A DNA stretch of 5,378 nucleotides from positions 1-5,378 of the IMG/VR virus record IMGVR_UViG_2671180921_000005; one strand, 5' to 3'. Source of the stretch: a virus. Taxonomy: Duplodnaviria; Heunggongvirae; Uroviricota; Caudoviricetes. The translations under genes were made by a program, and so were the position numbers. The notes beneath the pieces were generated by a model. The model worked only from the letters and a program-made list of their open reading frames with translations, did no database searches and was not told the origin of the DNA. Positions 2,133 to 5,378 of this stretch are shown piece by piece. The number at the start of each line of letters is the position of its first letter. The stretch's first letter is position 1.

Positions 2133-2855
2133 ATGAATGAGCTGATAAATAACAATGCCATCAAAATGACAAGCATTGAAATCGCTGAGTTGGTGGGAAG
2201 CCAACACGGTAATGTCAGAATATCAATAGAACGTCTGGCAAAGCGTGGGGTGATTCAACTTCCTCCAATGCAAAAAGTTGAAAATAAACAAACAATTAGC
2301 CCTAACAAATTCACAAGCGTGTATATATTCGAAGGCGAACAAGGTAAGCGCGATAGTATCATTGTCGTCGCCCAGTTGTCGCCAGAGTTCACCGCTCGCC
2401 TTGTTGACCGCTGGCGAGAACTCGAAGGGGCAACCGCGAAAATCCCACAAACCTTCTCTGAAGCATTGCGCCTCGCGGCTGACCTTGAAGACCAGAAGGC
2501 TGAACTGGAGAAACAGCTTGCTCTCGCAGCACCTAAAGTTGATTTTGCCGATCGCGTTGGCGAGGCCAGCGGAATTTTGATTGGAAACTTTGCAAAGGTT
2601 GTTGGTATTGGTCCAAACAAACTGTTTGCGTGGATGCGCGATCACAAAATCCTTATTGCTTCAGGTTCCCGGCGAAATGTGCCAATGCAGGAATATATGG
2701 ATCGCGGCTATTTCACAGTGAAAGAAACAGCGGTCAACACAAATCACGGAATACAGATATCGTTCACCACAAAAATAACCGGGCGTGGTCAACAGTGGCT
2801 GACCAGAAAGCTGCTCGATAACGGAATGCTGAAAGTAACAGGGGTGGCTGCTTAA
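2133..2855 (+). CDS. Phage antirepressor-like regulatory protein: N-terminal Rha domain plus C-terminal KilAC/AntA-type domain
   Basis: ORF ending at TAA 2853-2855. The N-terminus (MNELINNNAIKMTSIEIAELVGSQHGNVRISIERLAKRGVI) resembles the phage Rha family, and the C-terminal part (PKVDFADRVGEASGILIGNFAKVVGIGPNKLFAWMRDHKIL…) resembles KilAC-type antirepressor domains. Start placed at ATG 2133 because GAGG (2121-2124) sits 8 nt upstream; ATG 2127 (the ORF-track start) is possible but only 2 nt from the GAGG. Confidence 0.78.
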   Translation: MNELINNNAIKMTSIEIAELVGSQHGNVRISIERLAKRGVIQLPPMQKVENKQTISPNKFTSVYIFEGEQGKRDSIIVVAQLSPEFTARLVDRWRELEGATAKIPQTFSEALRLAADLEDQKAELEKQLALAAPKVDFADRVGEASGILIGNFAKVVGIGPNKLFAWMRDHKILIASGSRRNVPMQEYMDRGYFTVKETAVNTNHGIQISFTTKITGRGQQWLTRKLLDNGMLKVTGVAA

Positions 2856-3145
2856 TGGCTAACCTACGCAAAGAAGCGCGCGGCAGAGAATGTCAGGTAC
2901 GTATTTACGGCGTATGCAATGGCAATCCTGAAACTACAGTTCTGGCACATTACCGGATGGCTGGAATTTGCGGAACTGGAATGAAGCCTGACGACCTGAT
3001 CGGCGCATGGGCTTGTAGCGCGTGTCACGATGAAATCGACCGACGCACCCATAATCTCGACAACAAAGACGCCAGACTTTACCACCTCGAAGGCGTGATC
3101 AGGACGCAGGCGATACTGCTGAAGGAGGGGAAGATTAAACCATGA
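2855..3145 (+). CDS. DUF1364-family protein (YbcO-like), Cys-rich putative metal-binding nuclease-like protein
   Basis: 96-aa ORF whose start overlaps the upstream stop (TAATG). The translation MANLRKEARGRECQVRIYGVCNGNPETTVLAHYRMAGICGTGMKPDDLIGAWACSACHDEIDRR… has the conserved Cys cluster and closely resembles E. coli prophage protein YbcO as I recall it. It sits directly upstream of rusA, as in DLP12-type prophages. Confidence 0.8.
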   Translation: MANLRKEARGRECQVRIYGVCNGNPETTVLAHYRMAGICGTGMKPDDLIGAWACSACHDEIDRRTHNLDNKDARLYHLEGVIRTQAILLKEGKIKP

Positions 3146-3504
3146 ACGAATATCAGTTTGTGCTTCCATACCCGCCGTCGCTGAACACCTACTGGCGAAG
3201 ACGGGGAAGCCAATACTACATCAGCGATAAAGGCCAGAAATACCGAAAAGACGTTCAGAAAATCATCCGCCAACTCAAGTTAGACATTTTCACCAAATCA
3301 CGACTCCGCATCAAAGTCATCGCAGACGTTCCAGACTCCCGCCGCCGCGACCTCGATAACATCCTGAAGGGTTTACTCGACTCCCTTATCCACGCCGGAT
3401 TTGCGGAAGACGACGAGCAATTCGATGACATTCGCGTAATTCGTGGTGTGAAAGTACCAGGCGGAAGGCTTGGAATAAAAATCACCGAACTGGAGAACGT
3501 ATGA
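3142..3504 (+). CDS. rusA: RusA Holliday-junction resolvase (crossover junction endodeoxyribonuclease)
   Basis: 120-aa ORF with an ATGA overlap to the upstream gene. Counting residues in the translation gives D70, D72, K76 and D91 within …RRRDLDNILKGLLDSL…AEDDEQFDD…, exactly the positions of the RusA catalytic Asp/Lys residues. The length also matches RusA. Confidence 0.92.
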   Translation: MNEYQFVLPYPPSLNTYWRRRGSQYYISDKGQKYRKDVQKIIRQLKLDIFTKSRLRIKVIADVPDSRRRDLDNILKGLLDSLIHAGFAEDDEQFDDIRVIRGVKVPGGRLGIKITELENV

Positions 3505-3689
3505 ACGCCACAATTCAAACGATACCAGAGCTTCTTATCCAGACACGAGGCAATCAGACCGAAGTGGCGAGGATGCTTTCCTGCGCAAGAGGAGCAGTGC
3601 TCAAGTACAACCGAGACAGCAAAGGCGAGCGTCACGTAATAGTTAACGGAGTCCTGATGGTCACGCCAGGCAAAAAGGGAAGACGATGA
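3501..3689 (+). CDS. ninH: NinH-like small DNA-binding protein
   Basis: 62-aa ORF with an ATGA overlap upstream. The translation (…IPELLIQTRGNQTEVARMLSCARGAVLKYNRDSKGERHVIVNGVLMV…) matches the lambda NinH pattern (…GNQTEVARRL.C.RGTV.KY…H.IVN.VLMV) from memory. Confidence 0.8.
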   Translation: MNATIQTIPELLIQTRGNQTEVARMLSCARGAVLKYNRDSKGERHVIVNGVLMVTPGKKGRR

Positions 3690-4309
3690 GACTCGAAAGC
3701 GTAGCTAAATTTCATTCGCCAAAAAGCCCGATGATGAGCGACTCACCACGGGCTACGGCTTCTGACTCTCTTTCCGGTACTGATGTGATGGCTGCTATGG
3801 GGATGGCGCAATCACAAGCCGGATTCGGTATGGCTGCATTCTGCGGTAAGCACGAACTCAGCCAGAACGACAAACAAAAGGCTATCAACTATCTGATGCA
3901 ATTTGCACACAAGGTATCGGGGAAATACCGTGGCGTGGCAAAGCTTGAAGGAAATACTAAGGCAAAGGTACTGCAAGTGCTCGCAACATTCGCTTATGCG
4001 GATTATTGCCGTAGTGCCGCTACGCCGGGCGCAAGATGCAGAGATTGCCACGGTACAGGCCGTGCGGTTGATATAGCCAAAACAGAGCAGTGGGGGATAG
4101 TTGCTGAGAAAGAGTGCGGAAGATGTAAAGGCGTCGGTTATTCAAGAATGCCAGCAAGCGCCGCATATCGCGCTGTGACGATGCTAATCCCAAACCTTAC
4201 CCAACCCACCTGGTCACGCACTGTTAAGCCGCTGTATGACGCTCTGGTTGTGCAATGCCACAAGGAAGAGTCAATCGCAGACAACATTTTGAATGCGATC
4301 ACACGTTAG
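3686..4309 (+). CDS. Q: Late gene antiterminator Q (lambda Q type)
   Basis: 207-aa ORF with an ATGA overlap to ninH. The translation is near-identical over its length to lambda Q as I recall it (MRLESVAKFHSPKSPMMSDSPRATASDSLSGTDVMAAMGMAQSQAGFGM…), including the Cys4 zinc-binding motif CRDCHG…CGRCKG. Its position immediately upstream of a pR'-like promoter fits. Confidence 0.93.
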   Translation: MRLESVAKFHSPKSPMMSDSPRATASDSLSGTDVMAAMGMAQSQAGFGMAAFCGKHELSQNDKQKAINYLMQFAHKVSGKYRGVAKLEGNTKAKVLQVLATFAYADYCRSAATPGARCRDCHGTGRAVDIAKTEQWGIVAEKECGRCKGVGYSRMPASAAYRAVTMLIPNLTQPTWSRTVKPLYDALVVQCHKEESIADNILNAITR

Positions 4310-4351
4310 CGCCATGATTGCCACGGATGGCAACATATTAACGGCATAATA

Positions 4352-4410
4352 TTGACTTTTTGAATAACTTTGGGTAAATTTGACACCAATAATGGGCGTT
4401 TTTTACCTGT
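4352..4410 (+). promoter_or_regulatory. Late promoter pR' with overlapping qut (Q-utilisation) site and promoter-proximal pause region
   Basis: -35 TTGACT (4352-4357), 17-bp spacer, -10 TAAATT (4375-4380). The string ttgactttttgaataactttgggtaaatttgac is near-identical to lambda pR' (TTGACTTATTGAATAAAATTGGGTAAATTTGAC). Predicted start is about 4387-4388. The early transcribed region contains the -10-like element ccaataat, analogous to the lambda pause-inducing element. Confidence 0.78.
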
Positions 4411-4588
4411 CACTGATGAGTCTCAATAACCTGCCGCCGAGTAGTTTTTATGCTCTGAATTGTATTTGTGTAGTAAACATGCTGACTGCAATGTAATAGA
4501 GGTTTTTTAGCCTGTAACCTCTTGACGGCATTGAATTGCTTTTGTTGTGAGTTGTAAGCCAATGTTATCATCTTGTATAGAGGTGGTT

Positions 4589-5305
4589 ATGAGGGATGGT
4601 GCACTGCTCAGGAGTTCTTCACTTTTTATAGCCTACATGGGATGCCTTGGATGGGGAAGTGCTTATTTCTATGGCTGGGGTACTTCTTTTTACTACGGAT
4701 TCCCATGGTGGATTGTAGGTGCAGGTGTTGATGATGTTGCCAGAAGTTTATTTTTTGCAGTTATCGTCATTGCTATATTTCTTATCGGTTGGGGTATTGG
4801 TGTTGTATTCTTTTTCGCTGTGAAAAGAAAACATTCTATGCAGGAGCTAAATGTATTTCGCCTTTATTTTGCTGTGGAATTATTGTTTGTGCCGGCAATT
4901 ATTGAGTTTTCTATATTGAGACAGAAGATTCAGGTACCTCTTTTGCTACTGTCAGCAGCGATTGCGCTGGCAGTTACAATTTCGATAAGATCTTATGGGC
5001 GATTTTTATCGGTATCATGCTTCTATGGTAAGCCATTTATAAAAAAACATATTTTTGAAGTTGTGATGGTTGCTTTTGTGGCATATTTCTGGCTCTTCTC
5101 ATTTCTGACAGGATATTACAAACCTCAGTTTAAGAAAGAATATGAAATGATTAATTATAATGATGCTTGGTATTATGTTCTTGCTCGTTATGATAATTGT
5201 CTGGTTTTGTCTACTTCTTTTAATGCAGGTAGTAAGAGGTTTGTCATTTATCAATCAGCACAAGACAAGAATCTTCAGGTTGATATTGTAAGGACCAGAA
5301 TTTAA
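4589..5305 (+). CDS. Hypothetical multi-pass inner-membrane protein (about 238 aa; 4-5 predicted TM helices plus ~55-aa C-terminal soluble tail), AT-rich moron cargo downstream of Q/pR'
   Basis: Long ORF in a strongly AT-rich segment, ending at TAA 5303-5305. Start placed at ATG 4589 with a good SD (AGGTGG at 4581-4586, 2-nt gap before the ATG); the ORF-track start at GTG 4547 and ATG 4562 lack an SD. Hydrophobic stretches: SLFIAYMGCLGWGSAYFYGWG, LFFAVIVIAIFLIGWGIGVVFFFAV, LYFAVELLFVPAIIEFSIL, VPLLLLSAAIALAVTISI, IFEVVMVAFVAYFWLFSFLTGYY. No family recognised. The segment has no long ORF on the opposite strand. Confidence 0.6.
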   Translation: MRDGALLRSSSLFIAYMGCLGWGSAYFYGWGTSFYYGFPWWIVGAGVDDVARSLFFAVIVIAIFLIGWGIGVVFFFAVKRKHSMQELNVFRLYFAVELLFVPAIIEFSILRQKIQVPLLLLSAAIALAVTISIRSYGRFLSVSCFYGKPFIKKHIFEVVMVAFVAYFWLFSFLTGYYKPQFKKEYEMINYNDAWYYVLARYDNCLVLSTSFNAGSKRFVIYQSAQDKNLQVDIVRTRI

Positions 5306-5378
5306 TTGGCTGCATAAATAATATTTTTAGTTGCAAGTTGGCTATTCGTAAGAATAGAACCTTAGGCATGCTGAATGC

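Follow-up and report, generated by a model that had tools for sequence, protein, structure and literature searches.

What does a lambdoid prophage carry between its late promoter pR′ and its lysis genes, and to whose benefit? The question is raised by the open reading frame (ORF) at 4589-5305 of IMG/VR virus record IMGVR_UViG_2671180921_000005, which lies in a stretch of 5,378 nucleotides (nt) that was analysed whole and is called the window here. A first-pass annotation, made from the sequence alone, had placed at this spot an AT-rich gene for a 238-aa protein following the antiterminator gene Q and pR′, and the coordinates, base composition (GC content of 0.34-0.42 in the ORF vs about 0.50 in the remaining window), Pfam scan and promoter scan all bear this out. 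By its sequence, the product is a member of the catalogued TfpB family (Pfam PF27470, PHROG 1521 and the RefSeq 'STM1630 family'), and, judged by the arrangement of its relatives, the ORF opens an accessory cassette in the slot of a lambdoid prophage equivalent to that of stx. The family is small and strongly conserved. In addition to its place in the Shiga-toxin slot, it is carried by the Shigella invasion plasmid and recurs beside the genes for heat-labile toxin (LT), SseJ, LpxR and PmrD. Knowledge of its function would explain a gene found in about a quarter of complete Escherichia coli genomes and throughout Salmonella enterica.

Family membership and integrity of the gene

PHROG 1521, a group annotated as of unknown function, matches residues 17-238 of the window protein with an E-value of 3.7e-151. 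A precomputed match to PF27470 (TfpB) is attached to 106/106 homologues in a large protein collection. RefSeq gives the name 'STM1630 family protein' to a copy that is 97% identical to the window protein. Two phage proteins align with it across all 238 residues, the product of phage 434 gene 68 (CPT_434_68, OL657226, 'putative membrane protein') at 97.5% identity and a 'Phage protein' of phage 2B8 at 98.7% identity. The first-pass annotation could match the protein to no family that it knew, a statement that has to be withdrawn given PF27470, PHROG 1521, the RefSeq family and the existing annotation in phage 434. Since the gene is both catalogued and annotated, it is already known as an entity and the window holds no new one. 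What we add is its placement in this family, the wide range of virulence elements with which the family is associated, a medium-confidence fold model without a known relative and a pattern of terminator loss that predicts expression in the lysogen.

Searches of the window protein against the Pfam and NCBIfam copies used, which do not include the PF27470 model, and against PADLOC gave no match (NCBIfam CrgA, at E 0.29, is a chance result), and 63 family members searched against Pfam and PADLOC gave scattered chance-level matches only. None of the sequence tests run groups the protein with holins, RexB, SieB, Imm or Cor, in agreement with the first reading. A holin or antiholin reading of the ORF was rejected, as the protein matches no holin family in Pfam or PHROGs and a separate class II holin is present in relatives.

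When 1.84 billion representative proteins were searched with a family profile, only 71 clusters (50% identity) were returned, and one architecture is common to them all. The distant members belong to Neisseria, Actinobacillus, Gallibacterium, Avibacterium, Pasteurella, Mannheimia, Rodentibacter and Moraxella, and the family is found only in animal-associated Proteobacteria. Copies also turn up in two metagenome-assembled genomes: a contig assigned to 'Veillonella sp.' (L089) holds an E. coli prophage segment with Q, TfpB and DUF3927 genes at 97-100% protein identity, and one assigned to 'Acinetobacter sp.' holds a partial member that is 54% identical (P0068). Both are probably binning contamination. 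The Moraxella homologue, called 'protein tfpB' in one source, aligns with the enterobacterial alignment in hhalign with a probability of 99.5% and an E-value of 2.4e-23 over 228 columns at 25% identity, and these columns include the shared motif AY.YGWG...Y.GYPWW. It differs from the window protein in its length of 261 aa and in the position of its gene among type IV pilin genes, within what we take, from older literature, to be the pilin inversion region.

The relative for which functional data exist is STM1630 (SL1560) of Salmonella Typhimurium, from which the RefSeq family takes its name. It corresponds to P0074 in our protein set, as its gene adjoins sseJ and a published deletion primer encodes the P0074 residues NSSMLLAYLGGLGWG. 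STM1630 is 45% identical to the window protein over its full length, and like it has 238 aa, the same motif, the same architecture and an AT-rich gene. Unlike the window gene, STM1630 is chromosomal, has its own promoter, stands next to sseJ in a neighbourhood free of Q and lysis genes, and is co-expressed with Salmonella pathogenicity island 2 (SPI-2). Apart from the Salmonella papers cited below, no functional study came up in the literature under TfpB, DUF3927 or alternative locus tags.

The gene is under purifying selection. Pairwise ratios of nonsynonymous to synonymous substitution rates (dN/dS) are 0.07-0.13 when the window copy is paired with relatives whose proteins are 93-99% identical to its own, 0.12 when it is paired with an allele at 68% identity, and 0.05-0.07 for the STM1630 orthologue within Salmonella. 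All 100 of the 100 copies with DNA are intact at 237-238 codons, a count from a selected set, since these loci were chosen as best matches; frameshifted or split copies occur elsewhere (P0094, P0096 and P0106, with fragments clustered as PHROGs 14371, 17164 and 3985). An ORF of 717 nt in AT-rich DNA, with low dN/dS and intact copies, is far beyond chance, and we conclude that the gene is real. The same two lines of evidence rule out a degraded remnant, which the first-pass annotation had listed as an outcome that would undo its proposal. An in-frame GTG upstream, at 4547, would give a 252-aa version of the protein; because full-length homologues all align from the methionine encoded by the ATG, 4589 is the likely start.

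The cargo slot and its predicted transcription

Q of the window has a nucleotide identity of about 96% to Q of lambda, HK022 and mEpX2. In lambda, HK97, HK022, mEpX2, epsilon34 and others, the Q/pR′ segment is about 96% identical to the window and leads directly to the holin gene. Homology between the window and such phages ends a few bases 3′ of the pR′ −10 element, where matches to a query covering 4100-4700 stop at its positions 285-297 (Table 1). The exact junction of lambda-type Q/pR′ to the ORF is present in 572/5426 complete E. coli genomes, O157:H7 strains included, and many other E. coli genomes have the same Q with homology breaking at the same point. Irrespective of the junction, the gene of the 97% type is found in 1291/5426 genomes, and a single genome can carry as many as 4 copies.

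In 80 viral contigs, a lambda-type or Q82-type Q lies upstream of the gene. Where the contig is long enough, the order downstream is a DUF3927 gene, a small ORF, a NanS-p-type SASA esterase gene that may be present or absent, and a class II holin gene, which in relatives lies 2.8 kb downstream and just before the gene for a signal-anchor-release (SAR) endolysin. The first reading had assigned a single gene to the slot, whereas relatives show a cassette (DUF3927, small ORF, with or without the esterase) before the holin. The end of the window at 5378 precedes the DUF3927 start of relatives, which in locus L001 is 86 nt past the ORF stop codon. In the 97% lineage, the gene is always followed by the DUF3927 gene, which encodes a 52-aa membrane protein called TciB in the phage 434 annotation; in L001 (9082-9240) and L002 (5803-5961) a strong intrinsic terminator (9426-9444 and 6147-6165, respectively) comes next, in or after a 62-aa ORF. 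Other allele lineages lack DUF3927. As the 41-aa ORF that follows STM1630 does not encode a DUF3927 protein either, DUF3927 was rejected as a family-wide partner.

Four Q contexts were found upstream of family members: lambda-type (PF03589), Q82-like, PF06530, and DUF1133 with a weak PF06530 match. The late region that carries the 68% allele has a layout resembling that of Stx phages and consists of a Q-like DUF1133 gene, a methylase gene, two tRNAs, the TfpB-like gene, LpxR, sometimes PmrD, then esterase, DUF1378, DUF826 and holin genes. In phage 933W the equivalent slot, which reaches from Q to the same esterase and holin, is filled by tRNAs and stx2AB. Of 50,697 phage records searched in translation, three encode the window protein; these represent two phages, neither of them a Stx phage. 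Phage 434B is viable with its whole Q-to-lysis region swapped for DLP12 DNA (PMC9119081), so the gene and its cassette are dispensable for phage growth.

Gene content was compared at this junction as the first reading had proposed, and the gene is present in some and absent from other phages that share Q and pR′: lambda, HK97 and HK022 go straight to the holin, and 933W carries stx2AB in the equivalent slot. Presence or absence among otherwise homologous phages, together with a deviating base composition, is what one expects of a moron and sustains the view that it is accessory cargo. It shares its position with stx, and its deviant base composition and presence/absence pattern with stxAB and other lambdoid late-region morons (LT-II, Bor, Lom). 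Unlike stxAB, it encodes a membrane protein and not a secreted toxin, and in this lineage it is located between pR′ and the first strong terminator, not after tR′. Phages 434 and 2B8 have the same genes downstream, with DUF3927, the small ORF, the SASA esterase and the class II holin; in 2B8, mobile-element genes interrupt the esterase. Phage 434 differs from the window in having a Q82-like Q and an intact tR′, where the window has lambda-type Q/pR′ and a decayed hairpin.

This last difference bears on when the gene is expressed. The hexamers and spacing of pR′ in the window are those of lambda pR′, which is constitutive; by analogy with lambda, transcription would start near 4387-4388, with a −10-like pause element (AATAAT) at 4388-4393. 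The lambda-like −10 TAAATT was seen in the window, HK97, L056 and L067. In phage 434, an annotated tR′ 5′ of the gene, AAACCCGCTGCCGAGTGGGTTTTTTTT, folds at −13.3 kcal/mol and is followed by a T8 run. In the corresponding segment of the window both arms are mutated and the fold drops to −2.2 kcal/mol. The hairpin is decayed in all lambda-Q-type loci examined (about −2 kcal/mol) and intact in nearly all Q82-type loci. No terminator-like site was found in window positions 4100-5378, nor in the pR′-to-ORF interval of L001. The first strong terminator is GGCTGCGCATTGCGCAGCC with a T run, 3′ of the DUF3927 gene in relatives, and a second precedes the holin.

With a constitutive pR′ and no terminator before the ORF, the gene and DUF3927 are predicted to be transcribed in the uninduced lysogen, and the conditional suggestion in the first-pass annotation, of a product that could act in the lysogen if expressed there, is strengthened. 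By this analogy to lambda, the gene pair would occupy, in the predicted transcript, the place of the 6S RNA. We propose that decay of tR′ in lambda-Q-type prophages lets pR′ transcripts run through the gene to the terminator after DUF3927, and that after induction the level would rise through Q antitermination and genome copy number. If true, read-through from pR′ bears on the expression of stx-slot cargo in uninduced lysogens, and loss of tR′ would be a way to express the cargo of a repressed prophage without a dedicated promoter.

A sigma-70-like element about 40 nt 5′ of the start codon, represented in the window by candidate promoter P1, may add independent expression. Three allele lineages (97%, 67% and 59% protein identity), although their flanks have otherwise diverged, share the pattern TTGAC(G/T)-N15-TGnTAT at 37-40 nt 5′ of the start codon; among them is the plasmid copy of enterotoxigenic E. 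coli (ETEC), which has no pR′. This conservation suggests a possible second route of expression, independent of pR′. The overlapping candidate promoter P2 was called by the promoter scan in 434 and EC12; in the window its −35 falls under the scan threshold. Folding of the leader RNA at 4385-4592 was no better than that of shuffled sequence (z = −0.03), and we therefore propose no structured RNA element there.

Predicted fold, wider distribution and candidate functions

An AlphaFold model from a 36-sequence alignment was poor, with a predicted local distance difference test score (pLDDT) of 59. Adding distant members raised pLDDT to 77.3, with a predicted template-modelling score (pTM) of 0.71. 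The improved model has five long helices (residues 10-36, 47-78, 89-111, 116-136 and 149-181) and a C-terminal five-strand beta domain (residues 184-235), and this layout also fits the hydropathy profile and the distant members (about 240 aa). The first reading had counted four to five hydrophobic helices, and the model supports five and not four. Where it had seen a short polar C-terminal tail, the model gives the beta domain of about 55 residues. The glycine/aromatic N-terminal motif that it quoted is present, at residues 21-47, as is its C-terminal string. Family-wide, lysine plus arginine residues are most numerous in loops 2 and 4 (means of 2.7-2.9 and 1.4-1.7) and scarce in loops 1 and 3 (means of 0.0 and 0.6). 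This distribution predicts that the N-terminus and loops 2 and 4 are cytoplasmic and that loops 1 and 3 and the C-terminal domain are periplasmic. As modelled, the protein would insert with five spans and its N-terminus inside, so placing the aromatic/glycine motif of the first transmembrane helix (TM1) and loop 1, together with the beta domain, towards the periplasm.

Conservation is concentrated in two places. The motif A..(9)..AY.YGWG...YYG.PWW followed by ARSL, at residues 15-54, consists of columns that are invariant or nearly so in family alignments. It belongs to the first invariant cluster, which extends from TM1 through loop 1 into the beginning of TM2 (SS..AY.G.LGWGSAYFYGWG.S.YYGFPWW...G.DD.ARSL), and the second lies at the junction of TM5 and the beta domain (FSF..G.YKPQ.KKEY). 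No catalytic motif is apparent in the family alignments. A fold search with the model found no match among solved or viral structures, and the best E-value in a profile search of Protein Data Bank sequences was 4.3. We consider this, on a medium-confidence model, a fold without a known relative. The homology and structure checks removed the label 'unassigned', since a catalogued family was found, and revealed neither a known fold relative nor a holin family.

Outside lambdoid late regions, the family recurs next to virulence genes. A 60% allele is divergent from eltAB, the LT genes, with STb nearby, on ETEC plasmids rich in insertion sequences (L094-L097, ~2990-5714), and is indexed in >1000 blocks of an assembly collection. 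This ETEC layout is consistent with an origin of the LT locus in a phage late region. A 56-57% allele is present on 106 Shigella plasmids; two copies were examined, one on pCP301 (L104) and one on a S. sonnei plasmid (L105), both at 6001-6717 and both on virulence plasmids of the pINV type. The pCP301 copy, SF_p0168, is intact and lies ~5 kb from spa40 in a stretch rich in insertion sequences. In the Shigella plasmid copies GWGSAYF has become GWVSAYS, two substitutions at otherwise invariant motif positions. STM1630 adjoins sseJ in three subspecies of S. enterica (enterica, diarizonae and arizonae). The Citrobacter rodentium copy is beside a split LpxR gene, and the downstream genes for an alcohol dehydrogenase, a methyl-accepting chemotaxis protein and a LysR protein are common to it and the Salmonella STM1630 locus. 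The gene for the lipid A deacylase LpxR is near TfpB-family genes in three contexts (L002 2666-3625; L098-L100 ~5970-6919; L114 4863-5823), and PmrD accompanies it in one of the three.

Further copies are found immediately 3′ of a PF06530-type Q in Yersinia enterocolitica, in a microcin-type island with a Bor homologue (another E. coli allele), at prophage ends beside UmuDC-like genes in Enterobacter and Klebsiella, between an integrase and a resolvase in Mangrovibacter, among type IV pilin genes in Moraxella, and among housekeeping genes in Mannheimia and Neisseria. As no partner gene is common to all contexts, the protein probably acts alone or with a conserved host component.

STM1630 provides the experimental data. 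The gene is AT-rich, horizontally acquired, bound by H-NS, expressed in SPI-2-inducing medium and in macrophages, and missing from S. Typhi; every invasive ST313 strain tested carries an inactivated −10 in the promoter of the gene; signature-tagged mutants were reported to be attenuated in calves and chickens; and its deletion in strain 4/74 resulted in more intramacrophage replication (PMC6785131). Regulator-mutant profiling placed STM1630 in a SPI-2/PhoP-type gene group (PMC2639726), and the deletion was hypermotile in one screen (PMC4219756). Together with the recurrent virulence or envelope-modifying neighbours, the animal-associated hosts and the slow evolution of the family, these data lead us to favour, tentatively, a lysogenic-conversion envelope protein that would benefit the bacterium in an animal host, as in gut colonisation, and would not serve lysis. 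Given that no catalytic motif is apparent, we prefer a role in binding or modulating an envelope component over an enzymatic one.

Several points weigh against the lysogenic-conversion reading. The experimental data are confined to the Salmonella orthologue, 45% identical, and the phenotypes are modest and partly inconsistent: STM1630 had no effect in D23580 (PMC6785131), and a clean-deletion follow-up did not single out the hypermotility (PMC4534456). Linkage to virulence loci could merely reflect a shared phage origin of the islands, and, with a fold that has no known relative, the preference for binding over catalysis rests solely on missing recognisable motifs. As for expression, the strong tR′ 5′ of the gene in Q82-type loci such as that of 434 would make it Q-dependent unless the candidate promoter works. 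The pR′ −10 is the weaker GAAACT in most lambda-Q-type relatives (47 of ~52 gene-bearing loci, L001, L003 and L014 among them), which may mean a weaker late promoter in the very lineage that has lost the tR′ hairpin. Candidate promoter P1 was not called by the promoter scan, and among 101 loci the window alone has TGTGAG as its −10, relatives having TATGAG.

Rather unlikely, in our estimate, is superinfection exclusion or abortive infection, in which a lysogen-made protein would block DNA entry or kill the infected cell, alone or with DUF3927. Such a role would suit the protein, which is prophage cargo, polytopic in the inner membrane and predicted to be expressed on its own or with DUF3927 in the lysogen; as a prophage-borne inner-membrane protein of this kind it resembles P22 SieA/SieB, T4 Imm, lambda RexB and HK97 gp15. 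Its commonness in E. coli prophages, its copies on plasmids and, in Enterobacter and Klebsiella, at prophage ends, and the constant pairing with DUF3927 in the 97% lineage point the same way. The phage P1 counterpart is named tciB, presumably for tellurite/colicin resistance or cell-division inhibition. However, the protein has no PADLOC, Pfam, PHROG-annotation or fold match to these exclusion proteins, is larger, with its five spans and beta domain, and is widespread outside phages. PADLOC returned 0 families for the protein, and for the 63 members the best E-value was 0.014, with matches in at most 3 members. Strong purifying selection on a motif that is invariant across hosts is unlike typical exclusion proteins, which evolve fast. 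Vertical inheritance at one locus across Salmonella subspecies, the housekeeping neighbourhoods in Mannheimia and Neisseria, Salmonella expression that tracks SPI-2 conditions, and the restriction of DUF3927 to one lineage argue further against exclusion. The phage-defence function that the first reading thought plausible is thus left with no positive evidence: there is no significant PADLOC match, some copies are vertically inherited or core-like, and the orthologue data concern infection of the animal host.

The lysogenic-conversion reading can be extended to the whole family, although the extended claim is unlikely. TfpB proteins would then be an unrecognised class of host-adaptation factor across the virulence elements of mucosal pathogens, with a new fold and a conserved envelope target, and copies in lambda-Q-type prophages would have come under constitutive pR′ through loss of tR′. 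The elements concerned are the Stx-slot prophages of enteropathogenic and enterohaemorrhagic E. coli, ETEC LT plasmids, Shigella pINV, the Salmonella sseJ islet, and the loci in Moraxella, Neisseria and Pasteurellaceae.

We think it quite improbable that the protein is a late-lytic helper, which as the first gene of the late transcript would condition the membrane for holin triggering, lysis timing or cargo release. The location right after pR′/tR′, 5′ of the class II holin and SAR endolysin, would fit, and the intact tR′ of Q82-type loci ties pR′ transcription to Q. Yet 434B is viable without the region (PMC9119081), and lambda, HK97 and HK022 have the same Q/pR′ and do without the gene. Strong terminators, often with the esterase gene, separate it from the holin, and the family is common on plasmids and chromosomes away from lysis genes. 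Least probable is a factor that targets inner-membrane substrates linked to secretion, type IV pilin-like ones among them: Moraxella TfpB is located between pilin genes and the ETEC allele adjoins the genes for LT, which is exported by a type II secretion system using pseudopilins, but pilin linkage is seen in Moraxella only, and the Neisseria, Pasteurellaceae, Salmonella and E. coli contexts are without pilin genes.

Surroundings in the window

The ORF list and Pfam scan identify the window as the nin-to-late region of a lambdoid prophage, and its features are collected in Table 1.

Table 1. Positions of genes and of predicted or inferred signals in the window
Feature	Position	Strand	Remarks
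Dam-type methyltransferase gene	334-921
NinE gene	918-1100
Antirepressor-type gene	1378-2058
Antirepressor-type gene	2127-2855
YbcO gene	2855-3145
RusA gene	3142-3504
NinH gene	3501-3689
Lambda-type antiterminator Q	3686..4309	+	Pfam PF03589, E 1.2e-57; upstream neighbour of the cargo
Late promoter pR′	4352..4380	+	−35 TTGACT 4352-4357, 17-nt spacer, −10 TAAATT 4375-4380; promoter scan
Mosaic junction	4384..4396	.	Homology to lambda, HK97, HK022, mEp506 and many E. coli prophages stops here
Decayed tR′ hairpin remnant	4428..4449	+	Alignment to phage 434; hairpin intact in 434 and other Q82-type loci
Candidate promoter P1	4522..4551	+	TTGACG 4522-4527, 18-nt spacer ending TGT, TGTGAG 4546-4551; inferred
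Candidate promoter P2, overlapping P1	4542..4571	+	TTGTTG (relatives TTGTTA), 18 nt, TG-extended TATCAT 4566-4571
Ribosome-binding site GAGGTGG	4580-4586	+	Read from the sequence
TfpB/STM1630-family inner-membrane protein gene	4589..5305	+	238 aa; ATG 4589-4591, TAA 5303-5305
Promoter-like site inside the ORF	5167..5194	+	TTGGTA-16-TATGAT; also in 434 and EC12; consensus match only

The promoter-like site inside the ORF lies ~200 nt 5′ of the DUF3927 start of relatives. The change in the −10 of candidate promoter P1 in the window recalls the inactivation of the STM1630 −10 in Salmonella ST313, which may be coincidence. In the nin region, two antirepressor-type genes (ORF6N + P22AR_C; Rha + KilAC/ANT) are adjacent to each other in the ninE-ybcO interval, and a non-coding gap of 277 nt is present at 1101-1377.

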